From: a virus | Lineage: Duplodnaviria > Heunggongvirae > Uroviricota > Caudoviricetes | Reading direction: 5' to 3' (one strand) | IMG/VR virus record: IMGVR_UViG_3300039452_000031 | Length of the DNA stretch: 64,000 bases | Part shown: piece after piece, positions 12,999-54,844 of the stretch | How the letters are laid out: each line of letters opens with the position of its first letter | How positions within the stretch are numbered: the stretch's first letter is position 1 | Translations under genes and position numbers: made by a program | Notes under the pieces: generated by a model | Databases searched by the model: none | The model's input: the letters and a program-made list of their open reading frames with translations, nothing else | Told to the model about the DNA's origin: nothing

Positions 12999-13010
12999 AA
13001 ACTGTAAACA
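12999..13010 (+). promoter_or_regulatory. conserved 12-mer AAACTGTAAACA (candidate phage-specific promoter), copy 1
   Basis: One of six near-identical copies; 74 nt upstream of ATG 13084 and followed by the hairpin GCAGG(N10)CCTGC. Confidence 0.5.
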
Positions 13011-13083
13011 CGCAGTAGCAGGATGGTGGTGACCTGCACCAATCACCCCAAAGCAAATCGATTTGCAACAAGGAAAATACATC

Positions 13084-13911
13084 ATGGCTCGTACCGCAAA
13101 GACCTCCGCACGCAACACCCGCGCTGTCAAGAAGCCTGCACGTGGCGCCGCAGCGAAGCCGGCTCGCGCTGCTCGTGGCACCCGTACTGCAACCCGTGGC
13201 GCTCGCGCTGAACGCGCACCGAAGGTGACGAAGACCACGCGCGCTACCCGTCAAGCCAAGGCCGCACCGAAGCGTGCGCCGAAGGCTACGAAGGTGAGCA
13301 AGGCCGCAACGGTGAGCGCATCGCTTGGTCTCCAGATCGTGACCTCGATCAGTGGTGAAGTCAAGCTCACGCCGCAGGCTTACATTGTCAATGGTCAAGT
13401 GATTCCTCACGCGCTGGTCGTGGCTGTCGTCGGTGAAACGATCTACTACCGCGCGACCGTCAATCTCGGCACCATCGAGTCGGCCAAGGAAGTCAAGGGC
13501 AAGCAAGTCTTTGCCACCGACGCTGGCAACGTCGTGGTGTTCGACCCCACAGCCTTGAGCATCATCGCCGGTGCAGCCGCTGCTGCTTCGGAAGACGAAG
13601 ACGGTGATGACGAGGAGTCGGAAGACGAAGAAGCCGACGATACCGACGAAGAGGCTGAGGAAGAGGAAGAAGAGGACGAAGAGGAAGAGGAAGAGGAAGA
13701 GGAAGAGGACGAAGAGGAAGAGGAAGAGGAAGAGGAAGAGGACGAAGAGGAAGAGGCTCCCCGTCGTTCGAAGAAGGCTGTGAAGAAGCCGGCCAAGAAG
13801 GTGCCCAAGAAGGCTCGCGACGAAGAAGAGGAAGAAGAGGACGAGGAAGGCGAAGATGAGGACGAAGAATTCAACTTCGACGACGAGGAAGACGAAGGCG
13901 AAGACGAATAA
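13084..13911 (+). CDS. chimeric histone H1-like (N-terminal basic) and poly-Glu/Asp (C-terminal) protein
   Basis: N-terminal ~90 aa is an Arg/Lys/Ala/Thr-rich basic region. The C-terminus has long EEEEEEEEEED runs. ATG 13084 is preferred over the TTG at 13063 given by the ORF track. Confidence 0.6.
   Translation: MARTAKTSARNTRAVKKPARGAAAKPARAARGTRTATRGARAERAPKVTKTTRATRQAKAAPKRAPKATKVSKAATVSASLGLQIVTSISGEVKLTPQAYIVNGQVIPHALVVAVVGETIYYRATVNLGTIESAKEVKGKQVFATDAGNVVVFDPTALSIIAGAAAAASEDEDGDDEESEDEEADDTDEEAEEEEEEDEEEEEEEEEEDEEEEEEEEEEDEEEEAPRRSKKAVKKPAKKVPKKARDEEEEEEDEEGEDEDEEFNFDDEEDEGEDE
13610..13905 (+). repeat. coding GAR-rich (GAG/GAA/GAC) tandem repeats, ~33-nt unit
   Basis: gaggaagaggaagaggaagaggaagaggacgaa repeated about 2.5 times, plus related stretches. 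Confidence 0.6.
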
Positions 13912-13929
13912 GTTCGTGATGGCCTGATC

Positions 13930-13961
13930 AAGGAAGGGGACTGTGTGCCCCTTCCTTTTTT
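13930..13961 (+). terminator. rho-independent terminator
   Basis: AAGGAAGGGG(N8)CCCCTTCCTT followed by TTTT, 19 nt after the stop at 13911. Confidence 0.85.
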
Positions 13962-13973
13962 GCAAGGAGCCCC

Positions 13974-14261
13974 ATGAGCAAAGACGTTCTCGCACTTTAT
14001 AGCCGGAAATGCAAAAGGTGTGGACACTTGGATCCGGAGGAGACCAAGAAGTTCACTAGCTGTCACTACAGCAGAGGGAACATTGAATGTCCCGCACAGG
14101 AGGTGCAGATTGCAGTAGTGGGTGAAGCCAAAAGGTTGGCGGCTTCACTGAAGAAGGCGAAAGCCGAAGACAACCTTAGGCTGGAGATCAGAATCCTTGA
14201 GTACGTGAGGACGAAGACCCAAGCCTTCCAACACCGTTTCAAAGAGTGGACAAAGTCATGA
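13974..14261 (+). CDS. hypothetical Cys-rich (zinc-ribbon-like) protein
   Basis: CKRCGH...CHYSRGNIECP. RBS AAGGAG. Confidence 0.45.
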   Translation: MSKDVLALYSRKCKRCGHLDPEETKKFTSCHYSRGNIECPAQEVQIAVVGEAKRLAASLKKAKAEDNLRLEIRILEYVRTKTQAFQHRFKEWTKS

Positions 14262-14992
14262 GCGAGAGAACGAAGCCCACGACACTCAAGTTGGTCAAGA
14301 ACAAGTCCTGGTACATTCCGGGCGACACCCAGACGTACAAGACGCTGAAGAGCTTGGGCGTCCCACTGGTTAAAATCCACGTGGATATGATCCCCACGCT
14401 CAAGCTCCTTTTCGAGTCCCGTGGCATAGAAGCCCGGGCACAGAATTTCAAGTACCTGCTGGACAAGATGCTCGACAAGGTCGGGAGTCAATGGCAGGCA
14501 AAGCAGGGCCGTACCTGCAGGCTGGCGGAGACCCGCCTTCTTTTCCAAGCCAAGGGTGATCGCCATCGCAAGGCCTTCAACGCCCTTGACGTATACCTTG
14601 CGAAGTTCTTTGCGCGCTGGGGCTACTCGTATTCTGCGGAGTTCTCGGAGACTCCTGGTCGCATGAAGATGGTGGTCGACTATCGCTTCGACCCTGAGCG
14701 CAACCCCATCATCCCTACGGTCGAGGCTCCGGTCAAGACTGTGACTGAGTTCGAGATGGGGTTCACCAAGCTGCGTATCACCTTCAACGACAAGCCTACT
14801 GTTGCGGGAACAACTCGCACCCGCACACTGCCGGCCAATATTCAGGTCGAGGTGTTAGAGAAGGCAGGGTCTGACTGGCGGCCTCGCTACCAGTCTACTT
14901 GTGTGGATGCCCAGCTGGGTGAAGTCACCCAGTTGATGGAGGCTGTGGCCATCATTCATCAGCGCCGCAAGGTGCAAGAGGGCCGAGCATGA
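14246..14992 (+). CDS. hypothetical protein
   Basis: 248-aa ORF. Confidence 0.5.
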   Translation: MDKVMSERTKPTTLKLVKNKSWYIPGDTQTYKTLKSLGVPLVKIHVDMIPTLKLLFESRGIEARAQNFKYLLDKMLDKVGSQWQAKQGRTCRLAETRLLFQAKGDRHRKAFNALDVYLAKFFARWGYSYSAEFSETPGRMKMVVDYRFDPERNPIIPTVEAPVKTVTEFEMGFTKLRITFNDKPTVAGTTRTRTLPANIQVEVLEKAGSDWRPRYQSTCVDAQLGEVTQLMEAVAIIHQRRKVQEGRA

Positions 14993-15423
14993 ACTATCCG
15001 AAGAGCGATGTCATAGTCCACATGGACATCCAGCTCAAGGAACTGGAGGCTCGACGGGAAGCCGTCATCAAGTCCGTGCAGCTGGGCTGCAACCACGAAG
15101 AACTAGGTGAGTGCGACTATCTGAATCAGGACTGGCTTGGCTCGATGCCTCCAATGCGTATCTGTCTGCATTGCGGCATGTCTGAGGATGGCTGGTCCTG
15201 GTATGTGCTTCACGGTGAGGCCAATAAAGTTGGTCGTCTAAATTACGATCAGAAGATTCCGATTCGTAAGATGGATCGTGACGACCTATATCGCGCTCGC
15301 CGGGGTCTATCGATTCGGGACGCTCACAAGGGACCAATCGCTCGACGTGAGGTCACGCTCGCCCAATTGATTGAGGCCGATGGTGACCTCAAGAAGCTGG
15401 GCATCGAAGAGGAAAAAGATTGA
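14989..15423 (+). CDS. hypothetical Cys-rich protein
   Basis: Contains CNHEELGECDY...ICLHCGM. ATGA overlap with the upstream gene. Confidence 0.45.
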   Translation: MNYPKSDVIVHMDIQLKELEARREAVIKSVQLGCNHEELGECDYLNQDWLGSMPPMRICLHCGMSEDGWSWYVLHGEANKVGRLNYDQKIPIRKMDRDDLYRARRGLSIRDAHKGPIARREVTLAQLIEADGDLKKLGIEEEKD

Positions 15424-15425
15424 TC

Positions 15426-18962: not shown

Positions 18963-18974
18963 AAACTGTAAACA
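18963..18974 (+). promoter_or_regulatory. AAACTGTAAACA motif copy 2
   Basis: 15 nt after the GyrA-like stop, 71 nt before ATG 19045. Followed by hairpins CTGGGA(ATTC)TCCCAG and CGGGCAG(N11)CTGCCCG. Confidence 0.5.
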
Positions 18975-19044
18975 AATCTGGGAATTCTCCCAGGTCGGGC
19001 AGATAACAAAATCCTGCCCGTTCAATCAGAGAAGGAAATCTAAA

Positions 19045-19407
19045 ATGGCAACCACTCAACGCGCCGCTAGCGTCGCCAAGCAAGTCTCGGCCCTGGAGCG
19101 TAACAACAACCAACTGACCCGCCAGAACACCCGTCTGGAAGCCCTGGTCGAGAAGCTGAAGGCTCAGGCTGCCGGCGCCAAGGCCAAGCGTGCTGGTGCA
19201 GCCACCAAGGCTGAGAAGCCAGCTCGGGGTACCAAGGTCGCGAAGGCGGCCAAGGCCGAGCGCGTCGTTAAGGGCAAGAAGGTCCGTGCTGAAAAGCCGA
19301 CCAAGGCCGTTAAGGGCGAGCGTATCGCCAAGGCTGGTAAGGCAGCGAAGGCCGCCAAGCCGACCAAGACCGCGAAGAAGAGCAAGAACGACAGCGTTCT
19401 GCTCTGA
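19045..19407 (+). CDS. histone H1/Hc1-like protein (coiled-coil N-terminus, KAAK repeats)
   Basis: AKAAKAERVVKGKKVRAEKPTKAVKGERIAKAGKAAKAAKPTKTAKK. RBS GAGAAGGAAA. Confidence 0.55.
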   Translation: MATTQRAASVAKQVSALERNNNQLTRQNTRLEALVEKLKAQAAGAKAKRAGAATKAEKPARGTKVAKAAKAERVVKGKKVRAEKPTKAVKGERIAKAGKAAKAAKPTKTAKKSKNDSVLL

Positions 19408-24316: not shown

Positions 24317-24348
24317 TCTCCGCCGCTGATTCCTGACGATTCCAGCTC

Positions 24349-24403
24349 AAAACCACGTGCTCGACTGCTTTTTGACAGCTGGGCGCGTGGTTTTTGTCGT
24401 TTT
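24349..24403 (+). terminator. rho-independent terminator (long loop)
   Basis: AAAACCACGTGC(N22)GCGCGTGGTTTT followed by TGTCGTTTT. Confidence 0.5.
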
Positions 24404-43550: not shown

Positions 43551-43558
43551 GAAAGATC

Positions 43559-44251: not shown

Positions 44252-44253
44252 TC

Positions 44254-44658
44254 ATGACCTTACCACCAAAGCCTTACGAAGATCAGCCTTACTCAAATCC
44301 GATCTGTAATCCAAAGGGTGTTATTCTTCCCATGGCGTACGGATCTTGCACTTGTGATTGTCACCGAATTGAGGGTGTATATCACGTCATGCCGTGTTGT
44401 GGAATAGGTGTTGCATCCCTCCTTCCAGGGACGCGAATGAGCAGTCTACCATTTGTAGATGGCTTTGAATTTCGCGCATTGGAAGACATTCCAGCAGGGT
44501 TTGTAACCCCAGATCAGGTCAAGAACCGCATCTCCAGACCGACAACTGCCGAACCTGTGGAGATCAACTACGTGCAGTTCGATGACGCACCTCAGACTAT
44601 GAAGTCCCATCTTGAGGAAAAGCAAGAGGCCTTAAGGCAGCGGAAATGGCATCCCTAG
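44254..44658 (+). CDS. hypothetical Cys-rich protein
   Basis: CTCDCHRIEGVYHVMPCCG. TGATCATG coupling. Confidence 0.45.
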   Translation: MTLPPKPYEDQPYSNPICNPKGVILPMAYGSCTCDCHRIEGVYHVMPCCGIGVASLLPGTRMSSLPFVDGFEFRALEDIPAGFVTPDQVKNRISRPTTAEPVEINYVQFDDAPQTMKSHLEEKQEALRQRKWHP

Positions 44659-44682
44659 ACGGCTTCTTTCTCCCTAATTGAG

Positions 44683-44694
44683 AAACTGTAAACA
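44683..44694 (+). promoter_or_regulatory. AAACTGTAAACA motif copy 3
   Basis: Followed by the 11-bp inverted repeat CTGGTGACGAC(N52)GTCGTCACCAG, then a ~490-nt non-coding stretch before ATG 45185. Confidence 0.5.
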
Positions 44695-45184
44695 AGAAGA
44701 CTGGTGACGACTTCCCTTGGACCTCTGCTCTGGACCTATCCTAGCCATGGGTCTGCAACTAAGGTCGTCACCAGCTAGGCGGGTAGGTTGATGCTAGACC
44801 CTCCGCTGAATAACTGGTGCCTGAGGACCTGAGGAAGAGGATCGCATAGAAGGGCCGCGACGCGTAAGCACCAAGGCCTGGAGCGGTCGACAAACTCTGA
44901 CACAGGACAGTCAGGACCAGAAGAGCCGATCGGAGACCATAGGGAGACCTAGGGCTCTGAAGCATCTAGACGATGGGATGGGCATGAATCTCATTCGAGA
45001 CCGGATTTTAGAACGTGCGTGTCCACGGGTATGCCTACCAACAGGCTTTGGTCTACGTGTGCCAGACGTTGATCGAGACCTTAGAAAAGCCTGCTTGGCA
45101 ACAGGATGCGAAACCCGAGGGATGGGTTATGGCCTCCCAAAGTCCCTCCCCGTCCTTCGGGCGTAACATAGGTAAGGATTCATC

Positions 45185-45769
45185 ATGACCGGAATTGTTT
45201 GCTCCTGCTCTAACCCAGACTGCATGGTCAATGGATGCCGGCGAATGCGCGAGCTTCGTAAGGAGCATCCTAATGTTCTTCAGCCTGATCTGGTTCAGCA
45301 GGTTCCTAAGGACAAGTCCTACAACGACCTTGAAGAGCCTATGCGCAAGCAGCAGGAGTTCGAGGCCCTGAAGGCAAAGTTCCCTCCCATCGTGCCTGCC
45401 CGATATGAGAATTTGGGAATGCGTCGAACTGGGAGGACTACACGAATGCTAGCCTTGGCGGCTGAGAAGGCTCAGCAAGGTTATGCCATCTACGTGCTGT
45501 GCCTAAACAAGAGCAAGAAGTTCTTGGAGACCCAGTTTGCTACCCAGTACCCAAATGTTACGGGCGTCAAGTTCGATACCCGTAAGAGTCTTGTCTATGC
45601 GTTTGATGACCAAAGGCTATGCCTGAGGACTTCCATGCCTAAATCGCAATTGCTGATCGATCACGCCTACATTGAGTCCCGCTACTCTGTGGTCCTAGAT
45701 CATTTGCATGCCTTCGATGAGGTAAAGGAAGAAAAGGAAGAAAAGGAAGGGGAGAAAAAAAATGAGTGA
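45185..45769 (+). CDS. hypothetical protein (N-terminal Cys cluster, degenerate P-loop-like GMRRTGRTT)
   Basis: RBS GGTAAGGA. KEEKEEKEGEKK C-tail. Confidence 0.45.
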   Translation: MTGIVCSCSNPDCMVNGCRRMRELRKEHPNVLQPDLVQQVPKDKSYNDLEEPMRKQQEFEALKAKFPPIVPARYENLGMRRTGRTTRMLALAAEKAQQGYAIYVLCLNKSKKFLETQFATQYPNVTGVKFDTRKSLVYAFDDQRLCLRTSMPKSQLLIDHAYIESRYSVVLDHLHAFDEVKEEKEEKEGEKKNE

Positions 45770-46046
45770 CGTGAAAATTGGAGCCAAGACCTTGTTGGTC
45801 TTTGACGAGAATCCGGAGAAGATTAGCTTCTTCGTTATCGACTCGGCAAGCCCTATTGCGCAGCAGGCTCGTCTAGTGGCCGGCAAGTACATGAACAGTG
45901 ACGAGTTGACAAAGAAGGAAGAGAAGGCCCCCACCGCGGTATCCGAATGGATGGTTTCCACGGAAGGCAAGGCTGCTCGTCTGGACAACAAGAAGGTCAT
46001 GGAAGTTCGCGTTCAGGAAGTCATTCATTTCGGCTTTGCCTTGTGA
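45762..46046 (+). CDS. hypothetical protein
   Basis: 94-aa ORF. Confidence 0.4.
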   Translation: MSDVKIGAKTLLVFDENPEKISFFVIDSASPIAQQARLVAGKYMNSDELTKKEEKAPTAVSEWMVSTEGKAARLDNKKVMEVRVQEVIHFGFAL

Positions 46047-46055
46047 GGTAGGCCA

Positions 46056-46763
46056 ATGACTACCATTGCATGGGATGGCGAACAACTTGTAGCCGACAAG
46101 GCTGTGGTCATGAGCGGGCATCGTGCTCTGACCTGTAAGGCGCGAAAGCTCGCATCTGGTTTTCTTGTGGCTGGAACTGGTAGCGGGCCCTACGTCGAGG
46201 AAATGATTGCCTGGTTCTCTGACGGTGCAGACCCTTCCAAATTCCCAACTCATCAACGTGACCTCGAAAAGTGCGCCATGTTGATCGTCGTGTCCGAGGC
46301 AAAGGTCGTCAAGCTCTACGATGGCAGTCCGTACCCAATTCTGATCGAGGATCAGCAGTACGCTATCGGCTCCGGTAGCCACTACGCCCTGGCTGCCATG
46401 CACCTTGGAAAGAACGCGATTGCTGCCATCGAGGTTGCTGCTCATTTCGATCCCAACACCTCAGCAGAATACGATGCGCTAGGTTTTGAGCCCCAGACTG
46501 CCACCGTAGACAAATCCCAGCTTCTTGAGGAGTCGTACACAGAGATCATGGATCTTGTTCATGCTCTTGAGGACACGGCGTTCAGGCATGGTTGGAGCTT
46601 CGGACAAGAAGATCCAACCATGCCAGGAGACTCTGAGGAGCAGAAAGATCTAGATGATCTTAAGACCGACATAGAGAACAAGCTAAGTCGTCTTAGGGCC
46701 TCAACGCTTCCTTGTGAGGGCGGGAAAGATAAATTACCGAAGATGCGTAGGAGAAGGTCATGA
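46056..46763 (+). CDS. HslV/20S-proteasome-beta-like Ntn-hydrolase peptidase
   Basis: MTTIAWDG... has Thr immediately after Met. CKARKL, LVAGTGSG and QQYAIGSGSHYALAAMHLG parallel the HslV blocks TTIV..., AGFAGG and AIGSGGNYALSAARAL. Confidence 0.6.
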   Translation: MTTIAWDGEQLVADKAVVMSGHRALTCKARKLASGFLVAGTGSGPYVEEMIAWFSDGADPSKFPTHQRDLEKCAMLIVVSEAKVVKLYDGSPYPILIEDQQYAIGSGSHYALAAMHLGKNAIAAIEVAAHFDPNTSAEYDALGFEPQTATVDKSQLLEESYTEIMDLVHALEDTAFRHGWSFGQEDPTMPGDSEEQKDLDDLKTDIENKLSRLRASTLPCEGGKDKLPKMRRRRS

Positions 46764-47365
46764 ACTTGGATCTAAACATTACGTTTGAGCCCTTTCCTGA
46801 ACCTGTCTTGGAATTCGAATTCGCAGGACTTAAGTGTTACAACCATACCAAGGTTCTTCTGAACGGCGATTGGTGTCTGACAATAAATAAGTACCAGGAT
46901 CTTGATGTCCAAGTTCCGGTTATGGATGAGTGGGGCGATGAGGTAGAGGAAGACGATGAGCCCAAGGAAGTCGTGTCCTACGCGGTGAAGGCCAGATGGG
47001 ACATGCTGAAGGTCAATCACGACCCAATTGGGGCAGTGACAGAGGAAGACAAGAAGATTCCCACAATAGAATTGGCTCGAATTCACGCTGCTGCGGCTGC
47101 AGGTCAGGTCGCCAACTTCCTTCGGGAGAAGATGCGACTCTTTGGAAACGGGTCTGAAGCAAAGGCCTCGAAAGCCACAAGGTACAGATTCCAGTATGGC
47201 GACAAGGCTAATCAGACGGTCACTGTATATGCCACATCTCTTGAGGAAGCTCGTATCAAGGCCGTTTCGGAAATGAATCACAGGCTCCTGCTCAAGGGCA
47301 AGGTTCCACCAACCATCTGGGCTCTGGACCTCGTACCCTGGGTCACTGGCGGCAAATCAATTTAA
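46760..47365 (+). CDS. hypothetical protein
   Basis: ATGA overlap with the upstream gene. Confidence 0.45.
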   Translation: MNLDLNITFEPFPEPVLEFEFAGLKCYNHTKVLLNGDWCLTINKYQDLDVQVPVMDEWGDEVEEDDEPKEVVSYAVKARWDMLKVNHDPIGAVTEEDKKIPTIELARIHAAAAAGQVANFLREKMRLFGNGSEAKASKATRYRFQYGDKANQTVTVYATSLEEARIKAVSEMNHRLLLKGKVPPTIWALDLVPWVTGGKSI

Positions 47366-47387
47366 CTCGTAGGCAAAGGAAAAGAAA

Positions 47388-47699
47388 ATGCGAATCCAAC
47401 CCCGCAACGAATACGTGGTCCTCAAGGTCATTGAAGCTAAGAAGCACGGTGGCATTATTGTCCCGGGTCAAGAGACGGAACGCAATCTCCTCACCGTGGT
47501 CTCCGTTGGCCAAGGCGGATTGACTGTCGATGGCCGCCGTATGCCCATTGAGGTTTCCGATGGTGTGCCCCTCAAGTCCGGGGATGTGGTGTTTCTGAAA
47601 CAAGGTGAGTACGAGACTTTCGAGCACCAAAAGGTTCAGCACCTGATTGTTCCCCAATCGGCTTTGATTGGCATCGAACTGCCTCAAGTCAACGACTAA
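47388..47699 (+). CDS. GroES/T4 gp31-like co-chaperonin
   Basis: IQPRNEYVVLKVIEAKKHGGIIVP...VVSVGQG...GDVVFLKQGEYETFEHQKVQHLIVPQSALIGIE parallels GroES (RPL.DRV.VKR.E.E.KS.GGIV...EV.AVG.G...GD.V.F..Y...E.....EE.LI..E.DILA..E). RBS AAAGGAAAAGAAA. Confidence 0.5.
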   Translation: MRIQPRNEYVVLKVIEAKKHGGIIVPGQETERNLLTVVSVGQGGLTVDGRRMPIEVSDGVPLKSGDVVFLKQGEYETFEHQKVQHLIVPQSALIGIELPQVND

Positions 47700-47929
47700 A
47701 GTCCATACTGGGGACCTATACTCCTAACCAAACACGCGGCGAGTGTGAAGTAGAGTCCACACGCAGTTGCGACCCGGGGCGACCAGCGGTGCTGGAAGGC
47801 AATCAATGAGGTCCTGAACGGCAGGGCAACCCAACAGCGCAAGATCGTATCGATAAGTCGTTTTACGAAAGCCTGATTCAAGACCTCACCATTTGTAGTC
47901 CGTGAGATACACAGAATAAAGCATGTGAG

Positions 47930-48008
47930 TGGTCGGTGAAAACTAGGACCACGGAAAGCAGACGTTGATGGGTGCAAGACCCGGGTTCGATTCCCGGCAG
48001 CTCCACCA
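47930..48008 (+). ncRNA. ssrA: tmRNA (ssrA), acceptor piece of a circularly permuted two-piece tmRNA; 5' boundary approximate
   Basis: 3' end AAGACCCGGGTTCGATTCCCGGCAGCTCCACCA parallels the E. coli tmRNA 3' end (...GGACGCGGGUUCAACUCCCGCCAGCUCCACCA). T-arm CCGGG-TTCGATT-CCCGG. Acceptor 3' strand CAGCTCC, discriminator A, encoded CCA. Confidence 0.75.
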
Positions 48009-48080
48009 CTAGGTTCTTACAAGGGCCTAGTAGTGCGTTCTGAACATTGCTCGATGAGTTCAGAGTAGGGCCCTAGTGAT

Positions 48081-48300
48081 GGGGCTGAACTGGTTTCGAT
48101 TGCGTTGCTGAGACTGAAGCTACATGCCGAGGTAGTATGGATCCTCGTTAAAAGCCTATGCAACAAAAGTAACTGCAGCCAATGACAGCAGCTTCGATCA
48201 GCGCCTCGCGGCCTGATCGACAAAGCTCTGCCGGGTTCTACCTAGCTTAGGTTAGGTGTGTACGGCGGAGGGCCCGGGCACCTGATAATGACGGTGTCTT
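48081..48300 (+). ncRNA. ssrA: tmRNA (ssrA), coding piece: acceptor 5' strand, PK1 and tag ORF AANDSSFDQRLAA; 3' boundary approximate
   Basis: GGGGCTGAACTGGTTTCGATTGCG parallels GGGGCUGAUUCUGGAUUCGACGGG. It pairs with CAGCTCC, giving a G3:U70 pair. PK1 reads CATGCCGAGG...CCTCGTTAAAAGCC, as in E. coli CAUGCCGAGG...CCUCGUAAAAAGCC. Resume codon GCA at 48175 and TGA at 48214-16. Confidence 0.8.
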
Positions 48301-48512
48301 TGACAGAGCGCAAGCTCAATGAACCCGGGCCACCTTTCTCTTTGCAAGGCGATTGTGAAGCCCATTCCGACCAGATGGCCATCTGGGTAGCTCGATTCTT
48401 GAGTGTCGGTTATACGCCACATTCTCGTCCTGATGTTTTGCTAGGACAGCCACTACCTGTCTTAGGAAAGCATGAGTGGGTTTCACAATCTCTTTATTTC
48501 CTGGAGATGAAC

Positions 48513-48683
48513 ATGACTGATCCTCAATACAAGGTCATCAATCTAGTGACACTAACCGATCAGGAACGTAGGGCAATAGAGGCCTTCCTAGACGAACACT
48601 GGGAGCGTTTCTGTGCCGTGGCCGAGCATTATCTCACTGACGAAGAGATTGACGAGCTGGGCGACAAACTGGAACAGGAGTAG
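48513..48683 (+). CDS. hypothetical small acidic protein
   Basis: GGAG RBS 6 nt before ATG 48513. The ORF-track GTG 48258 extension lies inside the tmRNA coding-piece region and has no RBS. Confidence 0.35.
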   Translation: MTDPQYKVINLVTLTDQERRAIEAFLDEHWERFCAVAEHYLTDEEIDELGDKLEQE

Positions 48684-48686
48684 GCT

Positions 48687-49070
48687 ATGCAAAGACGTTC
48701 CTTCTTGGCTGCCATTCTCGCAGCCTCCGCGGCTCCGGCAATCGTGAGCGCCAAAAGTCTCATGCCTTTGCGGGTAGTTAAGCCCAAAAGCTTTTGGGTA
48801 TTCGAAGGCGAGCTAGACCTCACGCTCGCGGACAAGCTCAACGCCCTAGGTATTAGTAAAGATTTCCTGTACTCGCCATCTTTGTCGGAAATGAATTCCC
48901 TGTCTGAAACTTCGCTGCGAGCGCATTATCAGAGGATAAAAGAGCACCGAGAGCTTTACCAGGATTGTTTGAATCCTGAGTTTGGAAAGGTCTTCAAAGG
49001 GGCAATAATCAATGAGTGGGACGCGTTGGCGCTAAAGCAACGCCAGCGGCGTCAAGCTTACGGTTTTTAG
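48687..49070 (+). CDS. Tat-signal secreted protein (putative)
   Basis: N-terminus MQRRSFLAAILAASAAPAIVSA has twin-arginine RRSFLA plus an AxA site. RBS GGAGTAGG. Confidence 0.5.
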   Translation: MQRRSFLAAILAASAAPAIVSAKSLMPLRVVKPKSFWVFEGELDLTLADKLNALGISKDFLYSPSLSEMNSLSETSLRAHYQRIKEHRELYQDCLNPEFGKVFKGAIINEWDALALKQRQRRQAYGF

Positions 49071-49316
49071 TGGAAGGTATCCCATTATGGCCCTCCTAAT
49101 GTGCCTGTTGGTTGGTCTATTCCTGACGTTTCAATTGGGGCCTCTCAGACCGTCGACCAACCACGGCACTGACCAACTTGGGCCCCAGAGGCCCGAAGAG
49201 CGATGGCGATTGTGACCATCGGGCTAGGGGCCGCGCTCGAAGGGAACGTGCGCATCGGTAACCCGCCCAAAAGGTAGCCGATAAGGTCTCATGGTTTCGA
49301 CCAATGCAACTGAGGA

Positions 49317-49345
49317 AGGCGTGGATGCTTTGTCTACGCCTTTTT
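49317..49345 (+). terminator. rho-independent terminator
   Basis: AGGCGTGGA(N7)TCTACGCCT followed by TTTT. Confidence 0.75.
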
Positions 49346-49358
49346 CCTTGTCTCCTTA

Positions 49359-49370
49359 GAACTGTAAACA
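49359..49370 (+). promoter_or_regulatory. GAACTGTAAACA motif copy 4 (variant first base)
   Basis: 50 nt before ATG 49420. Followed by the hairpin AGGTC(ACGTA)GACCT. Confidence 0.45.
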
Positions 49371-49419
49371 CTCTGGCACAGGTCACGTAGACCTCTAACC
49401 CAAACCTAAGGTACCGATC

Positions 49420-49647
49420 ATGGAACGCTACTACGTTTTCAATCAGGACATGAAGATCCTCGACACCATCGAGGCCCCGAACGTTGAGAAGGCGTTGGAG
49501 AAGGCGAAGAAGAACCTAGCCTTTCGTTGCCTGAACCCAATCGTTGGCAAGGCTAATGAGCATGACGCGATTCTTGAGCGTATGGAGCGTGACGAACCGC
49601 GTCAGCACCGCGGTCACTACACCCAACGTCGCCATCAGCAGCATTGA
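49420..49647 (+). CDS. hypothetical protein
   Basis: 75-aa ORF. Confidence 0.4.
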   Translation: MERYYVFNQDMKILDTIEAPNVEKALEKAKKNLAFRCLNPIVGKANEHDAILERMERDEPRQHRGHYTQRRHQQH

Positions 49648-49656
49648 GGTCTGACC

Positions 49657-49812
49657 ATGACAACAGCAGCCCCAACCAAGACGATGACCAAGCTCCCTCC
49701 GCCTAAGAAGGCGTGCGAGTGCCCAAAATGCAGCCGTGAAGGCTATCGAGTCTCCAGTCCTGGGTGTAGGCCGCTGTACCACTGCGCATACTGCCGAATG
49801 CAGTTCTCCTAA
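49657..49812 (+). CDS. small zinc-ribbon protein (51 aa; not in the ORF track)
   Basis: MTTAAPTKTMTKLPPPKKACECPKCSREGYRVSSPGCRPLYHCAYCRMQFS. ATG 10 nt after the upstream stop, with GAGG nearby. Confidence 0.3.
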   Translation: MTTAAPTKTMTKLPPPKKACECPKCSREGYRVSSPGCRPLYHCAYCRMQFS

Positions 49813-49935
49813 CCTTCTGGAGATGATGAATGACACCCACGGTGCCCTAACAGTTCAGTTTCAAAGCCCAGAGTGGTTTCAGGCCACGCGCATTGGCTAT
49901 ATCAATCTTCATCAACATCCACTGTAGAGACCATC

Positions 49936-50244
49936 ATGGACATTCAAGTTCAAATCGACAAGAAGGCTGTAGAGGCCCAAATCGTTCAGGCCGTCATGGC
50001 CTCTGCACTTGGTGAGCATGTTGATAAGGCGGTTAAGAAGGCCTTTGAAGCCCCAGGTTTTAGTCGTTCTTCTTTTGTTGAGACCGCAATTCAACAGGCT
50101 TTATACGACTGCATCCGAAGTATTGCGGTTCAGGAAGTGGATAAGTTTAAAGACCTTATCAAGGCCAAGGTTTCCGAAAAGTTGACTGATGATGTCGTGG
50201 ACTCTTTTGTTTCCAAGGCTTGGGAAAGATTCACTAAGGATTGA
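49936..50244 (+). CDS. hypothetical protein
   Basis: RBS GAGACCATC before ATG. The ORF-track start 49873 has no RBS. Confidence 0.4.
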   Translation: MDIQVQIDKKAVEAQIVQAVMASALGEHVDKAVKKAFEAPGFSRSSFVETAIQQALYDCIRSIAVQEVDKFKDLIKAKVSEKLTDDVVDSFVSKAWERFTKD

Positions 50245-50304
50245 GTATGAATGACAACCAGTTCCAGAGTATAGGCAACATCGCCTAGCTTCCTGGAGGG
50301 CCAA

Positions 50305-50496
50305 ATGGCCAACACGTTGATTCCCGAACGCATCAATTTCTTGAACATCAGTGCCATCTCGTTGGCGAAGTTGATCAGGACCGAGATCAAGACCTACAAC
50401 GGTCGTGATCCGGACCTCATGACCTGCCTGACCTTGGCTCGTCTCATGAAGGAGGCCCATCGTCAGGGTGAGATCCGTGGCAGGGCTTTGAAGTAA
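50305..50496 (+). CDS. hypothetical small protein
   Basis: 63-aa ORF with GGAGGG upstream. Confidence 0.35.
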   Translation: MANTLIPERINFLNISAISLAKLIRTEIKTYNGRDPDLMTCLTLARLMKEAHRQGEIRGRALK

Positions 50497-50508
50497 AGTG
50501 AATAATGT

Positions 50509-50585
50509 CGGAGAGTAGCTCAGTTGAATAGAGCAGCGGTCTTCTAAACCGCAGGTCAGGGGTTTGAATCCCCTCTCTTCGACCA
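50509..50585 (+). tRNA. tRNA-Arg (anticodon TCT)
   Basis: Acceptor CGGAGAG/CTCTTCG. D-arm GCTC-AGTTGAATA-GAGC. Anticodon loop CTTCTAA. T-arm AGGGG-TTTGAAT-CCCCT. ACCA 3' end. Confidence 0.9.
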
Positions 50586-50589
50586 AATA

Positions 50590-50673
50590 GCGCGGGTGGC
50601 GAAATTGGTAGACGCACTTGGTTTAGGTCCAAGCGTCTTTGACGTGCAGGTTCGAGTCCTGTCCCGCGCACCA
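50590..50673 (+). tRNA. tRNA-Leu (anticodon TAG)
   Basis: Acceptor GCGCGGG/CCCGCGC. Anticodon loop TTTAGGT. Long variable arm CGTCTTTGACGT. T-loop TTCGAGT. ACCA 3' end. Confidence 0.9.
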
Positions 50674-50681
50674 CCTATTAA

Positions 50682-50755
50682 GCGGGTGTAGCTCAATGGT
50701 AGAGCAAATGCCTTCCAAGCATAAGACGAGGGCTCGATCCCCTTCACCCGCTCCA
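50682..50755 (+). tRNA. tRNA-Gly (anticodon TCC)
   Basis: Acceptor GCGGGTG/CACCCGC. D-arm GCTC-AATGGTA-GAGC. Anticodon loop CTTCCAA. T-loop CTCGATC (C at position 54). TCCA 3' end. Confidence 0.8.
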
Positions 50756-50772
50756 AATTTAAAGCCGTGTCT

Positions 50773-51171
50773 ATGCATTCAAAACTTCTTAGCACCAAAA
50801 CTTCAGTTCCCACAGGTCATGACATTGTTGATCTTGTGGCCTATCTAAAGCACGTTAGGACCTACTACAAGGATGGTATCGCTAGTCGTGCATCAGAGAT
50901 TGTGGCCCACATTGAACAGCTTACGGCCTGGATCGATCTCTTGGAAAACTCAGGCAAGGTAGATATCCCTAGAAGTCGGTTGGCTCGGGTTCATCTACTT
51001 ATTGGACAAGGTCTTGAGGCCTCAACAGTTGGCGGCAAGCACGAAGCTTTGGAACGACTTGGTCATAACATCGGGCCGTGGATTTGTGCTTCGTGCTCTA
51101 CTTCATTCCCAATGCGACCTGAGAAATGCCCTGTCAATGGCTGCAATGAACTTCTAGACAAAGGCTTTTAA
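50773..51171 (+). CDS. hypothetical protein with C-terminal zinc-finger-like Cys cluster
   Basis: CASCSTSFPMRPEKCPVNGC. The ORF-track GTG 50767 lies 12 nt after tRNA-Gly; ATG 50773 is preferred. Confidence 0.45.
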   Translation: MHSKLLSTKTSVPTGHDIVDLVAYLKHVRTYYKDGIASRASEIVAHIEQLTAWIDLLENSGKVDIPRSRLARVHLLIGQGLEASTVGGKHEALERLGHNIGPWICASCSTSFPMRPEKCPVNGCNELLDKGF

Positions 51172-51172
51172 C

Positions 51173-51772
51173 ATGAGTACCAAAGTCGATAAGCTCCACA
51201 TTCTATCGTGGCTAAGTGCGCGCTTCCGCAAGGCTAGAAAGGAACGTGAAGACTCTCCACACGATCTAGGAGCGGTGCTAAGTCAGCAAAATGCGTCTGC
51301 TGTGCTTGCGGATTTCGTTGCCGACTTTAATGTCGCTGACTCAGGTCCCTCTGCTAAAGAAATTGCTGCCACTCTAGCAAAGCCAAAGAACTGGGCTCTC
51401 TCGCCTCCTGATAAGCGGCATGAGATGGAGATGTGCGAAGTGATCACCGAACGAGACCGTCGTGAAGAGGTCATCAACCAGATTCTGGATCTCGTCCTCG
51501 GGAAAGATCGACCAGAGTGGTCAAGTGCCTATAATTTTGAGGACGCCATTCGTGATGTGCAAGCGCGCTGTTTAGACGGTGAAGCCATGTACGGACCCCC
51601 GCTGGCTTGGGTACTCTACACAGCCACACCGGCGCTTACACCCTACGGTAGTCCTTACTCTTCCAAAGAGGAGGCGTTTGCTAGCGCATTTCGCATTCCG
51701 GCTACAATAGCGTGGGAAGTTCGCCCCCTGTATGACATCCTAAGAAAAGGAGAGCAAGATGCCGCAAGCTAG
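51173..51772 (+). CDS. hypothetical protein
   Basis: 199-aa ORF. Confidence 0.45.
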   Translation: MSTKVDKLHILSWLSARFRKARKEREDSPHDLGAVLSQQNASAVLADFVADFNVADSGPSAKEIAATLAKPKNWALSPPDKRHEMEMCEVITERDRREEVINQILDLVLGKDRPEWSSAYNFEDAIRDVQARCLDGEAMYGPPLAWVLYTATPALTPYGSPYSSKEEAFASAFRIPATIAWEVRPLYDILRKGEQDAAS

Positions 51773-51965
51773 TGCAGAGACCCTGAAGGCTTGGCCTCAC
51801 GACGACCGAAAAGCCTACACGCTCCTCGAAGAGAATTTCGGAGAGAAGGGCGGCTGGTACTATCCGAAGGTTGTTGGGTATCAGCCTACTGCTGAGGAGC
51901 AGGCGGCTATCAACTATCTGGTAGAGGAGTGGGACTATGGGTACACCGCAGTTGATCCCAGTTGA
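51759..51965 (+). CDS. hypothetical small protein
   Basis: RBS AAAAGGAGAGCAAG. Confidence 0.4.
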   Translation: MPQASAETLKAWPHDDRKAYTLLEENFGEKGGWYYPKVVGYQPTAEEQAAINYLVEEWDYGYTAVDPS

Positions 51966-52836
51966 GGCTCAGATTGATGCGGCAGAGAAGTACGCTGAGG
52001 ACTACGATGAGGACCCTAGTCCCGGCATTAAGTCCGCAGTCCTGAATGCCTTCTACGCAGGTATCAAGTTCGGGTCCATCGAGACACAGGCACTGGTATC
52101 CGCAGGAATCGAGGCCGTCATAGAGGTCTTGAAGCCTATCTCCCATAACAGCAGTCTGGATTACCGTGGTGACGCTGATGAGGCTCTGGACCTCTTGAAC
52201 ACCTTGGTCGTGGCCAGGGAGATCGAGAACCAAGGCACTTGGTGCGGCTACGTTGCGGGCATGATTGCCACCTACCTGAGAATGGGCACTGATGACCAGC
52301 GCATCAAGGCCATGGCCAGCATCATTGAGCGTCGTCTATGGGCTCTGAAGCCTTCAGAGAATTCGCCCATAGTACCTTCCGGTTGGCAGCTTGTTCCCGT
52401 TCGATGCACTGACGAGATGGGTCAAGCTGCTTATGAAGAGGCAGGCTGCCCGACCGATGGCTGGCATGGCTTTGAAGAGCTTTGGGCTGCAGCTCTTAAA
52501 GCCGCACCCAAACCTGAGGAAGAGAAGCCTATCCACTTCTACGATGACTGGCGACCAATCAGGGCCGCGCTGGATGCAGCCTATGAGAAGCTGGGTCGCA
52601 AGTTCACGAAGGGCGGAGGTTGCTCGACTGCGGATTGGAATCTGGCAGTTCTAATCTACAAAGCTGTGGAGGAAAAGAACGCGAAAGAAACCTGCGTTCA
52701 CTGCCAGAAGTCGTACCTCAGGTACCAGACCTACAGGTGCTTCGACTGCAAGGCCACGCTGTGTGAGTATTGCGCCCCCGAACACTTTGGTCCCAAGCAC
52801 CAGGGGCGGGCTGAGGTCGCCCATCCGAAACTGTAA
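51937..52836 (+). CDS. hypothetical protein with C-terminal B-box-like zinc finger
   Basis: CVHCQKSYLRYQTYRCFDCKATLCEYCAPEH. RBS GGAGTGGGACT. Confidence 0.45.
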   Translation: MGTPQLIPVEAQIDAAEKYAEDYDEDPSPGIKSAVLNAFYAGIKFGSIETQALVSAGIEAVIEVLKPISHNSSLDYRGDADEALDLLNTLVVAREIENQGTWCGYVAGMIATYLRMGTDDQRIKAMASIIERRLWALKPSENSPIVPSGWQLVPVRCTDEMGQAAYEEAGCPTDGWHGFEELWAAALKAAPKPEEEKPIHFYDDWRPIRAALDAAYEKLGRKFTKGGGCSTADWNLAVLIYKAVEEKNAKETCVHCQKSYLRYQTYRCFDCKATLCEYCAPEHFGPKHQGRAEVAHPKL

Positions 52837-52839
52837 ACA
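52828..52839 (+). promoter_or_regulatory. AAACTGTAAACA motif copy 5 (overlaps the stop codon of the upstream gene)
   Basis: The TAA stop at 52834-36 lies within the motif. 145 nt before ATG 52984. Confidence 0.45.
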
Positions 52840-52983
52840 ATAAAACTCGAATGTCAACAAGAGGCGTTGATGTAGAAAGACCGGCATGACCGTCTACCGG
52901 ACTGTGACCGCGAAAGCGAGCTTGTAGGTCGGTCATCGGGTACCCAATCCCGATCTCTCTACCATAAACGAAGGAGTTGACTC

Positions 52984-53274
52984 ATGGAAAACGTTCAGAA
53001 GCCTGTGCATCGTACCAACCTGCGTGGCCTGCTGGCCTCCCTGGGCGGTAAGGTCTTCAGTCTTGACTTTATCAAGGCTGATGGTTCGCCTCGTACTATG
53101 ACTGGTCGTCTGGGAGTGGGCAAGCACTCCAAGGGCGGCCCGAACAAGGTCGAGGCCACGGATCGTCCGTACCTGACGGTATACGATTTCCAGCACAAGG
53201 GGTATCGAACTGTGAACCTTGCAACTGTGGGGCGCGTTAGGGCTCACAACCTTGATGCGTCTGTGATCGGTTGA
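52984..53274 (+). CDS. hypothetical protein
   Basis: RBS AAGGAG. Confidence 0.5.
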   Translation: MENVQKPVHRTNLRGLLASLGGKVFSLDFIKADGSPRTMTGRLGVGKHSKGGPNKVEATDRPYLTVYDFQHKGYRTVNLATVGRVRAHNLDASVIG

Positions 53275-53329
53275 TCGAGTAATACCCTCAGCCCACTGTG
53301 TTTAGCCACGGATAAGGGCGCGTGAGGGC

Positions 53330-53365
53330 GTGGCGGCTGTACACGGAGGCCGCCATCTCTATTTC
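53330..53365 (+). terminator. terminator-like hairpin GGCGGC(N11)GCCGCC plus ATCTCTATTTC
   Basis: GC-rich 6-8 bp stem followed by a pyrimidine/U-rich tail. Confidence 0.4.
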
Positions 53366-53376
53366 AAGGACCTGCC

Positions 53377-53790
53377 ATGGACATCCATATCCTCAAGTGC
53401 GACATCAAGACCTCCAATGGCCACGTTTATCCGAAAGAGGACGTGCAGAAAGCCATCGATCTTCTTGGGGACACACCAGTCCAAGGCAATTACAACTTTT
53501 CCCTTAATAACCTCTCGGAGAAGTCTTCCTACGAGGTTCACAACCTGCACCTCGAGGGCGATAACCTGGTCGGCACGCTAAAGATTCATGAGTCCGAAAA
53601 GAGCAAGGCTCTTCGTCATCTGCTAGAGTCGGATCGAATTGGGTCCGTGACCTTTGGAGCCAGCGGCTACGGAGACGTCCTGCCTGATGGTACGGTCGTC
53701 AACTACCGCATCGTAAGTATAGACTGCGTGGACCGAACAAAAGAAGTGCCTGAATACGGTGACTGGTTAGTAGGTTCAGGCGAAGGGTAA
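53377..53790 (+). CDS. hypothetical protein
   Basis: 137-aa ORF. Confidence 0.45.
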   Translation: MDIHILKCDIKTSNGHVYPKEDVQKAIDLLGDTPVQGNYNFSLNNLSEKSSYEVHNLHLEGDNLVGTLKIHESEKSKALRHLLESDRIGSVTFGASGYGDVLPDGTVVNYRIVSIDCVDRTKEVPEYGDWLVGSGEG

Positions 53791-53796
53791 GACAAC

Positions 53797-53871
53797 GCGA
53801 CCGTAGTTCAATGGATAGAACGGAACCCTCCTAAGGTTCAGATATGGGTTCGATTCCCGTCGGTCGTACCA
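53797..53871 (+). tRNA. tRNA-Arg (anticodon CCT)
   Basis: Acceptor GCGACCG/CGGTCGT. D-arm GTTC-AATGGATA-GAAC. Anticodon loop CTCCTAA. T-arm ATGGG-TTCGATT-CCCGT. ACCA 3' end. Confidence 0.9.
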
Positions 53872-53905
53872 GCTTAATTTCATGGGGTAGTCAACGAGGT
53901 CGGTA

Positions 53906-54217
53906 ATGATACCCTACAAGGAAGAAGCGGATCACGCAGAGGTGGCTAAGCAAGTTCAATATCTATTGGACGCACCACAGACTCACGTACCGTACGCAAC
54001 GAAATGCAAGATCAAGGACTGGGACAAGCCAGTGCCTGCAGCCTATCAGGTGTACGTCCTTACCAGACAAAACTTATGGCTGTCGCAGACCGCCAAGCGA
54101 CTTCTCAATGCCCTTCTGCTGGCCACAGTCGCTTTGGAGAAAACAACAGAGAAGGACTTACAGGTGAGGTATGAACAAAGACGAGACACACTGCCTAAGG
54201 GTGTTAACGCTGCCTAG
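53906..54217 (+). CDS. hypothetical protein
   Basis: RBS GAGGTCGG. Confidence 0.45.
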   Translation: MIPYKEEADHAEVAKQVQYLLDAPQTHVPYATKCKIKDWDKPVPAAYQVYVLTRQNLWLSQTAKRLLNALLLATVALEKTTEKDLQVRYEQRRDTLPKGVNAA

Positions 54218-54578
54218 GCCTGCCCCTGACGTTGACCTCCGCACCCTTCTTGAGGACGGTAGCGAGGTGTTGGATTGGGTGACAGAGAACGAGGTACCAC
54301 AGACGGCGACGTTGATAACCTTCATGATTCTTGTGGCATCAATCGTGGGCGCGTACTACGTTGATATGGCTCATGTAGCCTACGCTATGGCGGTCTTCAC
54401 CGTAGGCTTCTGGGTTCACATGGCCAACGACTTCAAGACCCAGAAGTCGTGGGCTGTGGCAATCAAGAGCATCGTGCAGCCTCTCCTCAACCTTGAACCT
54501 TCCCGCTATGGAGATGAGCACCTAAAGGTGCTGCATGACCTGCACTACTTTAAGCGAGCCCATCTATGTCAGGACTGA
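54171..54578 (+). CDS. hypothetical membrane protein
   Basis: TM segments LITFMILVASIVGAYYV and AMAVFTVGFWV. RBS GTGAGGT. Confidence 0.4.
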   Translation: MNKDETHCLRVLTLPRPAPDVDLRTLLEDGSEVLDWVTENEVPQTATLITFMILVASIVGAYYVDMAHVAYAMAVFTVGFWVHMANDFKTQKSWAVAIKSIVQPLLNLEPSRYGDEHLKVLHDLHYFKRAHLCQD

Positions 54579-54760
54579 CGATACGGGAAGCTCTCATCTC
54601 CTGCAGTCCCAGCTTGGAGATCCATCGTGGGGCACAGTCTCTAATCGCCGAGCTTGACGCCCAGATAAGGGAGCTTAAGGTCTCACTTGAGACCCGGGAT
54701 CGGCGCATTGCTGATCTTGAAGCTCTGGTGTCAGAACGCGAAGACCAAACACAAGGCTGA
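54566..54760 (+). CDS. hypothetical small coiled-coil protein
   Basis: 64-aa ORF. Confidence 0.35.
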   Translation: MSGLTIREALISCSPSLEIHRGAQSLIAELDAQIRELKVSLETRDRRIADLEALVSEREDQTQG

Positions 54761-54789
54761 TCGCTAACGCGGTCGGCCTTTTCCTTTTG
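54755..54789 (+). terminator. rho-independent terminator (stem with two G:U pairs)
   Basis: GGCTGATCG(N6)CGGTCGGCC followed by TTTTCCTTTTG. Confidence 0.5.
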
Positions 54790-54832
54790 TCCTCCAACTT
54801 TAGCCACTAGGCATCTACGCGCCCTAAAACAG

Positions 54833-54844
54833 AAACTGTAAACA
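54833..54844 (+). promoter_or_regulatory. AAACTGTAAACA motif copy 6
   Basis: 62 nt before ATG 54906. Followed by the palindrome ACTAAACGTTTAGT. Confidence 0.5.

Follow-up and report, generated by a model that had tools for sequence, protein, structure and literature searches.

A 12-mer, AAACTGTAAACA, recurs ahead of genes in the window, a stretch of 64,000 nucleotides (nt) of a tailed phage (IMG/VR record IMGVR_UViG_3300039452_000031), and is probably the promoter of a phage-specific transcription class, of middle or delayed-early type, that serves genes of DNA metabolism, small RNAs and a tRNA. The window corresponds to positions 55223-119222 of the 131,559-bp metagenomic contig ERZ27313792:k141_1575514 and was fetched together with 10 kb on either side, by which 82.7 kb of the 131.6-kb contig were covered. 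The phage is a jumbo phage and distant kin of Ralstonia phage phiRSL1. With at most one mismatch allowed, the motif was found six times in the window, and a more divergent variant adjoins a tRNA gene.

12999-13010, + strand: copy 1, AAACTGTAAACA, 73 nt before the ATG at 13084 (gene 13084-13911).
18963-18974, + strand: copy 2, between the topoisomerase II A-subunit gene, the stop codon of which lies 14 nt back, and gene 19045-19407, which starts 70 nt further on.
42018-42029, + strand: variant AGACTGTAAATA, which ends 7 nt before tRNA-Ser (42037-42126) and scores 18.1 bits with the position weight matrix (PWM) of the motif.
44683-44694, + strand: copy 3, at the head of a 526-nt stretch poor in open reading frames (ORFs; 44659-45184).
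49359-49370, + strand: copy 4, GAACTGTAAACA (the GAAC variant), 49 nt before gene 49420-49647.
52828-52839, + strand: copy 5, 144 nt before gene 52984-53274; its TAA (52834-52836) serves ORF 51937-52836 as stop codon.
54833-54844, + strand: copy 6, 61 nt before gene 54906-55817, which encodes an acidic protein.

All six copies listed in the original prediction were found again at their sites, and the partial copy that it had placed at 42021 is real, being AGACTGTAAATA when read in register (it overlaps the stop codon of ORF 41727-42026). That all lie on the + strand holds for six of six, with none on the - strand; that all are intergenic holds in full for five, copy 5 overlapping the upstream stop codon. 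The distance from the end of the motif to the next start is 49-144 nt, in agreement with the 50-150 nt given before, and copy 3 is again the exception (283 nt to a doubtful ORF of 62 amino acids and 490 nt to the gene at 45185). The expected number of copies in the window is 0.13 and none of 100 shuffles reached six; with a non-coding share of the window of ∼9%, the probability of all six being non-coding by chance is ∼6e-7, and 8-mers within the motif tie for the highest count among non-coding 8-mers. A further copy, the eighth, was found outside the window, 4.2 kb upstream; it reads AAACTGTAAATA and is separated from the next gene by 28 nt. Over the 82.7 kb of contig CTGTAAA[CT]A occurs nine times on the + strand and not at all on the - strand (0.07 expected per strand); a count of strand and coding position on the scale of a full genome, as had been proposed earlier, was obtained for phiRSL1.

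The nearest cultured relatives of the window phage (39-52% amino-acid identity) are Ralstonia phage phiRSL1, the Burkholderia phages BcepSauron, BcepSaruman and BCSR5 and Achromobacter phage Motura, and a large uncultured clade carries topoisomerase A proteins ∼60-66% identical to that of the window. No close relative was returned by a DNA-level search of the annotated phage collection or by a protein-pattern search of IMG/VR. The loci of six relatives from the uncultured clade (L001-L006; GC content 36-52%), in which gene order is kept, were used for comparison, and the orthology of the genes downstream of copies 1 and 6 (13084-13911 and 54906-55817) was confirmed by blastp. The motif is kept at orthologous intergenic sites although amino-acid identity is only ∼64% and GC content ranges from 36 to 54%, and between flanks that cannot be aligned. 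Before the orthologue of 13084-13911, a gene of ∼280 codons, it reads AAACTGTAAATA in L002 and L003 and AAACCATAAATA in L001; after topoisomerase A it reads AAACTGTAAATA (L001), AAACTGTAAAAA (L002) and AAACTATAAATA (L003); before the orthologue of 54906-55817 it reads AAACTATAAATA (L004), AAACTGTAAACA (L005) and AAACTTTAAATA (L006). L005 contains AAACCGTAAACA five times, once ∼100 nt before its transfer-messenger RNA (tmRNA). The consensus in the clade is AAAC[T/C][G/A]TAAA[T/C]A, and at a PWM score of at least 13 bits 34 hits were obtained on the + strand and none on the - strand in ∼205 kb (this phage plus the six relatives), 23 of the 34 being situated at gene ends or between genes.

The genome of phiRSL1 (NC_010811, 231 kb), put together from six annotated pieces (L007-L012), could be searched as a whole. 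It contains 35 copies of the core GTAAATA against ∼1.0 expected from a second-order Markov model; 15 are on the + strand, all in rightward blocks of genes, and 20 are on the - strand, all in leftward blocks, so that 35 of 35 are co-oriented with the genes. About 25 lie 5-135 nt upstream of an annotated start and the preferred context is GCA-GTAAATA-(G/A). The genome has three divergent junctions (∼104.0, 110.5 and 204.4-205.0 kb), and at each of them GTAAATA precedes the first gene of the block by 17-30 nt. Since an upstream transcript cannot enter such a junction, a promoter must be located there, and little room is left for anything else. An information profile of the 35 sites with 45 nt on each side showed nothing else conserved and no -35 box.

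The same core, each time with its own 5' extension, is common to phiRSL1, Motura, BcepSauron and Xanthomonas phage PhiXhv-15. In Motura five copies were counted over 25 kb; all run in the direction of the genes, and one stands 63 nt before the gene for the single-stranded DNA-binding protein SSB. BcepSauron has CTAGTAAATAA at two places, ahead of SSB and ahead of the gene that lies upstream of the peptidase (the orthologue of 54906-55817). In PhiXhv-15, whose sigma-like protein is 27% identical, three copies read ATCCTGTAAATAA and two read GTAAACAA; each is co-oriented with the genes, and terminators directly precede two. The motif thus precedes SSB in L004, phiRSL1, Motura and BcepSauron, and in PhiXhv-15 the gene in the position of SSB. 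Gene 54906-55817 is the second upstream of a conserved peptidase gene (56723-57739), and GTAAATA also precedes the phiRSL1 gene that is placed like it (site 177092). The extensions are AAACT in the window phage, AAACC in L005, GCA in phiRSL1, CTA in BcepSauron, TC in Motura and ATCCT in PhiXhv-15. Because GTAAATA recurs across these phages, the core appears to be ancestral to the whole phiRSL1-like group and the upstream 4-5 nt appear to be lineage-specific.

In-register alignment of the window copies revealed no conserved -35 box, as the original prediction had stated, and no conserved downstream box. No match to the host sigma70 consensus was found at the four copies within the scanned region (42000-56000, + strand). 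Host-type promoters of a distinct kind are present in the same phage, with TTGAC boxes followed by TGnTATACT, at 4700, 11107 and 24473 of the window and 2.5 kb upstream of it, and the motif is therefore taken to mark a separate promoter class. The regions that hold the host-type promoters (4604-4742, 11107-11115 and 24317-24485 in the window and ∼7150-7300 in L014, the part of the contig upstream of it) combine repeated TTTTTGAC boxes with the extended -10 element TGnTATACT; situated ahead of runs of small ORFs, these promoters are probably the early class.

The motif would act as a single asymmetric extended -10-like element (AAAC-T-G-TAAA-Y-A) that needs no -35 box. Host RNA polymerase core would start ∼6-8 nt downstream of it, carrying a phage specificity factor, most probably the divergent sigma70-family protein encoded at 60470-61429, and would transcribe non-structural operons: the topoisomerase-adjacent genes, the SSB region, the genes of DNA-binding and acidic proteins, a tRNA and at least one structured transcript poor in ORFs. 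Hints at the start site come from two spacings, the 7 nt between the variant and tRNA-Ser and the 7 nt between copy 3 and a 13-bp stem; the former would fit a start ∼6-8 nt past a -10-like element.

The structures that surround the copies are the following.

18976-19020, + strand: two tandem hairpins directly 3' of copy 2.
44701-44774, + strand: 13-bp stem-loop that begins 7 nt after copy 3 (z -3.07 for 291 nt folded).
49312-49346, + strand: hairpin and T run like those of an intrinsic terminator, 13 nt short of copy 4 (-23.1 kcal/mol for 49305-49358).
54753-54780, + strand: intrinsic terminator with a 12-bp stem and a T run, 52 nt upstream of copy 6.

A short perfect hairpin had been reported after each copy and interpreted as the structured 5' end of a transcript. 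Short stems can be drawn anywhere, and only the 50-nt fold after copy 2 (-23.4 kcal/mol, z -4.93) beats its shuffles; the folds after copies 1, 4, 5 and 6 gave z values of -0.13 to +0.07 and that after copy 3 gave +1.75. L002 has the same tandem-hairpin arrangement after the copy-2 site (z -4.25), and L001 and L003 have hairpins of other sequence there. In phiRSL1 z was below -2 at seven of the 35 sites versus four of 60 controls (p = 0.15). A hairpin was accordingly rejected as a general part of the signal, and the structured 5' end as a general feature went with it.

Several observations weigh against the promoter assignment. All genes of the window are on the + strand, so that the strand bias observed there is inseparable from gene orientation. 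About ten of the 35 phiRSL1 copies, and a few in the clade, are intragenic, some of which are explained by the coding of Thr-Val-Asn. Strong terminator-like hairpins follow some copies at a distance of 1-12 nt (phiRSL1 183967 and 70784, Motura L015 4634, BcepSauron L017 12914 and window copy 2), and in phiRSL1 the loop of a hairpin of 4-10 bp holds ∼5 of the 35 copies. Start-site position, temporal class and reader identity are inferred, the first two in all these phages. Finally, a second motif, AATTTGA[TC] (the AATTTGAT type), is present in phiRSL1 (21 copies versus 3.2 expected, all co-oriented with the genes), and two motif classes are thus faced by one recognizable sigma-like gene. In BcepSauron as in phiRSL1 a AATTTGAT-type box precedes the operon of this gene, and that class could be the one that the sigma reads. 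The hairpin-abutting copies are awkward for a simple promoter unless initiation takes place inside the 5' arm of the hairpin. With a start ∼7 nt past the motif, initiation at most of these copies (BcepSauron 12914 is a misfit) would indeed fall within that arm; transcripts from upstream could then be terminated by the stem, which new ones, begun inside the arm, would escape. The copies in loops are at phiRSL1 44797, 55563, 164264(-), 177092(-) and 195479(-), an example being GGGTCTACCC-gGTAAATA-GGGTAGACCC.

The protein proposed as the reader is encoded as follows.

60470-61429, + strand: putative reader, a divergent member of the sigma70 family (316 amino acids by the gene call of the contig, which starts at 60479). 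The sigma genes of the cultivable relatives phiRSL1 and Motura are ORF224 and gp034.

A search of PHROGs assigned this protein to phrog_17569, 'RNA polymerase sigma factor' (E 5e-48). No match was obtained in sequence and profile searches against PDB sequences, and no credible one when the single protein was compared with Pfam and NCBIfam; the relationship to sigma70 became evident only from a family-wide scan, in which Sigma70_r2 was matched weakly by 17 of 23 homologues, and from a fold search. In the latter an AlphaFold2 model (mean predicted local distance difference test score, pLDDT, 84) was compared with the PDB by Foldseek, and the top 50 hits were all chains of RNA-polymerase holoenzymes, nearly all from E. 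coli (best E 4e-4, template-modelling score ∼0.45). No RNA polymerase gene is present in the annotated relatives; phiRSL1, which encodes no RNA polymerase, is sensitive to rifampicin (PMC5468394), and sigma factors of their own are thought to be the means by which jumbo phages of this group redirect the host polymerase (PMC7824862). The motif core and the sigma family occur together in six of six sampled lineages, down to a sigma identity of 27%, in phages that share many other genes too. We see an even chance that the protein reads the motif and not the second motif class.

The alternative that survives best keeps the promoter and changes the reader, which would be a remodelled host sigma70 holoenzyme, as with MotA/AsiA of T4, or an unrecognized phage factor, while the annotated sigma would read the late class. 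Apart from the two motif classes and the AATTTGAT-type box already mentioned, it draws on the position of the sigma gene among genes of the motif class. In T4 and SPO1 sigma genes that are expressed with the middle genes drive the next transcription class. Against it, the TAAACA of the motif is without the T at -7 that sigma70 needs and is unlike the phage's own TATACT -10 boxes, and motif core and sigma family remain together in all of the lineages sampled. Among nine ORFs near the sigma gene, most of them without annotation, no other transcription factor and no gp33 homologue were seen. We regard a different reader as rather unlikely. A broader proposal, to which we lean somewhat less than to its opposite, is that GTAAATA is the core recognized by an uncharacterized clade of sigma70-family proteins (phrog_17569) in the phiRSL1-like jumbo phages (Mieseafarmvirus, Sarumanvirus, Moturavirus, the PhiXhv-like phages and the large uncultured clade), that the extensions co-evolve with the sigma to give orthogonal 12-bp promoter/sigma pairs, and that the pairs would control a middle programme, including non-coding RNAs and tRNAs, with initiation inside the 5' arm where the motif abuts a hairpin.

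The gene content downstream of the motif bears on its timing. In phiRSL1 it precedes the genes of the beta-clamp, DnaB helicase, SSB, thymidylate synthase, dCMP deaminase and a recombination endonuclease as well as helicases and ATPases. The head, tail, baseplate, portal, terminase and lysis regions of that genome contain one intragenic copy (147498) and one before the helicase ORF129, and no GTAAATA was found upstream of any head, tail or lysis gene. In the window the motif stands ahead of genes for DNA-binding and acidic proteins and for small uncharacterized proteins, a tRNA and a structured stretch poor in ORFs. The RecA/terminase/portal (terL-to-portal) stretch of the window phage, which lies downstream of the window, is without a full copy. 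Because the motif precedes genes of replication and metabolism and is near-absent from structural modules, its class is read from gene content as middle or delayed-early, and the label 'late' that had been attached to it is not retained. AATTTGA[TC] stands upstream of tail-fibre, holin and head-region genes of phiRSL1 and of the operon that contains the sigma gene, and is a candidate for the late-class promoter of phiRSL1-like phages; examples are at phiRSL1 104043, 110536, 122363, 122685 and 161561(-) and at BcepSauron L017 ∼9297. TTT[TG]ATG was tried as a late-class motif in the terL/portal region of the window phage and was discarded, its occurrences being too few and too scattered.

The distribution of the motif also speaks against a late promoter of the T4 type, that is, a variant of TATAAATA read by a minimal gp55-like sigma with gp33 and the clamp for the late expression of virion genes. 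There is a resemblance: the core T[G/A]TAAA[T/C]A is one or two positions off TATAAATA, which in T4 lies at -13 to -6 (PMC1524935), exact CTATAAATA variants occupy two orthologous sites (in L003 and L004), both are single elements without a -35 box, and late motifs of the ATAAATA type have been predicted for other jumbo phages (PMC5259590). Exact TATAAATA, however, is absent from the window, and the targets are not virion genes but genes of replication, recombination and nucleotide metabolism, a tRNA and stretches poor in ORFs, several structural and lysis genes of phiRSL1 carrying AATTTGA[TC] instead. The sigma-like family is moreover, at profile level, without detectable relation to gp55 (hhalign gave a probability of 0.2% for the profile of 23 sequences against T4 gp55), and the two belong to different PHROG families, 17569 (∼316 amino acids) and 234 (185 amino acids); no gp55-like gene was found in the 82.7 kb seen of the contig, and by annotation the phiRSL1 replisome is of the beta-clamp/DnaX rather than the gp45/gp44-62 type. 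A promoter of this type is given little credence. What stands of the original prediction is a phage-specific, single-element promoter-like signal without a -35 box that is co-oriented with genes, intergenic, conserved and distinct from sigma70-type promoters; its late timing and its kinship with the gp55 system are not supported.

A function at the level of RNA would make GUAAAUA a processing site, for an enzyme like RNase E or a phage endoribonuclease, or an operator of stability or translation on polycistronic transcripts. Such a signal would likewise be co-oriented with the genes, AU-rich within a GC-rich genome and placed between cistrons, and the occasional exposure of the motif in a hairpin loop or beside a stable hairpin, together with its variable distance from the start codon, would suit it. 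The promoter is favoured by the copies at the three phiRSL1 divergent junctions, so close to the first start codon, and by those that follow intrinsic terminators (window copies 4 and 6 and twice in PhiXhv-15); the variant 7 nt before a tRNA and the lack of any other promoter-like element in the short spacers point the same way. An RNA-level signal is likewise given little credence. An intrinsic terminator or RNA-processing signal, considered as such, was rejected: the motif heads divergent units and follows terminators, and the downstream hairpin is not general.

The least probable of the alternatives weighed is an operator, at which a phage DNA-binding activator or repressor would act beside promoters of another kind; a conserved 12-mer in regulatory regions of phages with many unannotated small proteins might be just that, but the motif is asymmetric, lacks both a dyad and a second half-site and is strictly oriented with gene direction, which disfavours an ordinary operator, no -35/-10 pair stands alongside, and at the phiRSL1 junctions only the 17-30 nt before the start codon are left for one. 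A host sigma70 promoter (-35 TTGACA, -10 TATAAT, spacer 16-18 nt) was rejected for the missing -35 box and the missing T at -7.

The genes that follow the copies include, as had been noted, histone-like and acidic proteins. The protein of 13084-13911 has a basic N-terminal region rich in Ala, Lys, Pro and Arg and then a long poly-Glu tail (30% Asp+Glu), that of 19045-19407 (120 amino acids) is rich in Lys and Ala (27% Lys+Arg, 24% Ala), and 54906-55817 encodes the acidic protein. The composition of the first two resembles that of histone H1. The product of 52984-53274, downstream of copy 5, is a WYL_2/SH3-like protein. No ORF of at least 60 codons lies between copy 3 and 44978, and the stem-loop at 44701-44774 is a candidate for the 5' end of a non-coding RNA or of a long structured leader. 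The two ORF-poor stretches, 44659-45184 and 49071-49419 (349 nt), the second of which ends in the terminator before copy 4, are candidate phage non-coding RNAs; neither matched an Rfam family at E values up to 1, and blastn against all fetched relatives returned no similar sequence.

Three further sites in the window resemble the motif less closely.

10775-10786, + strand: weak variant AAACTATAAAAA (17.5 bits) at the end of ORF 10491-10805, 28 nt before 10815-11048; a possible site only.
34274-34285, + strand: near-copy GGGCTGTAAACA without the AAA extension, intragenic in 33763-35052; its function is doubtful.
61224-61235, + strand: degenerate copy GAACTGTAAATG (13.0 bits), intragenic in the sigma gene (3' part) and 195 nt short of the SSB gene.

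The last encodes Thr-Val-Asn and is probably a by-product of coding. Motif-like copies in the sigma genes of L004 (12212) and L006 (7499) share one codon position and also encode Thr-Val-Asn (ACT GTA AAT); the window has other codons there, and the two were rejected as conserved internal promoters.

Besides both topoisomerase II subunits, the sigma-like protein, the SSB-like protein and the peptidase, the window encodes an NAD-dependent ligase and RtcB, and its RNA genes are six tRNAs and a permuted tmRNA. The latter (47916-48307), of the two-piece type, carries the tag peptide AANDSSFDQRLAA and matches Rfam RF04321 with 75.5 bits (gathering score 47); a TATACT box lies upstream of it at 47717, and the homologous tmRNA of L005 (4857-5236) has the tag ANDSSFRQALAA. 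An HslV-like peptidase is encoded at 46056-46763, and the 193-residue protein of 57736-58317 shows a weak match to the L37ae/eL43 zinc ribbon (E 8e-5, below the family cut-off). Upstream of the window, L014 contains a UvrD-like helicase gene split by an intein (2693-5530; PF14890), inteins being present too in some topoisomerase A homologues, and an ORF like Acb2/Tad1-hairpin (6069-6416; PF24729), the product of which may be an anti-CBASS/Thoeris sponge.

The motif offers a testable regulatory code for a large and almost wholly uncultured group of jumbo phages, the transcription of which is undescribed in the literature searched: no description of the motif and no promoter analysis of phiRSL1-like phages was found there, the primary phiRSL1 paper lying outside that search. 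A microarray time course is reportedly part of the phiRSL1 paper by Yamada and coworkers from 2010. The motif would mark where transcription units begin; at least three promoter classes are suggested (host-type TGnTATACT, GTAAATA and another that serves the virion genes), and the ORF-poor stretches and the tRNA are flagged as independently transcribed. Paired with a small sigma of its own, a promoter of 12 bp could find use as an orthogonal expression part. That a phage sigma reads a single -10-like element is a textbook principle, and the motif itself is a useful, unsurprising addition to the known phage promoters.

Among known systems, the late promoters of T4, served by the sigma gp55, the co-activator gp33 and the clamp gp45 (PMC1524935), are alike in consisting of a single A/T-rich -10-like element without a -35 box that is used by host core with a phage factor; TAAATA is common to both, some orthologous sites in relatives carry variants like TATAAATA, and the consensus drifts by lineage, as that of Aeh1 does among T4-like phages. 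They differ from the motif, which has G and not A at the second position, C at the seventh in the window phage and a 5' extension of 4-5 nt, and for which the candidate sigma is a protein of ∼316 amino acids with a sigma70-like fold and targets among replication and metabolism genes; partners of the gp33 or gp45 type were not identified. For the Rak2-like jumbo phages CBB and GAP32 a late motif, ATAAATA, has been predicted (PMC5259590); it too is a computed, A/T-rich single element in jumbo phages with sigma factors and no RNA polymerase, but it was derived from the upstream regions of structural genes, which the window motif avoids, and is paired with a gp55-like sigma. The bacterial extended -10 promoter (TGnTATAAT) also dispenses with a -35 box, and the AAACTG extension could supply upstream contacts as it does; TAAACA and TAAATA are nevertheless without the T at -7, the TG is out of register, and the phage has true TGnTATACT elements besides. 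In phiEco32 the middle and late promoters have AATGTA centred at -11.5 and depend on gp36, a distant sigma homologue, helped by gp79 (PMC12276001). That phage is an unrelated podovirus with another motif, and one sigma serves its middle and late genes where the phiRSL1-like phages appear to have two phage-specific motif classes. No counterpart of gp79 was identified in the window phage, no search aimed at one having been made. The arrangement is otherwise the one proposed here: a divergent sigma70-family protein acting with host core, no RNA polymerase gene (in the annotated relatives), one element near -10 with a TGTA stretch and no -35 box, and early genes on sigma70 promoters.

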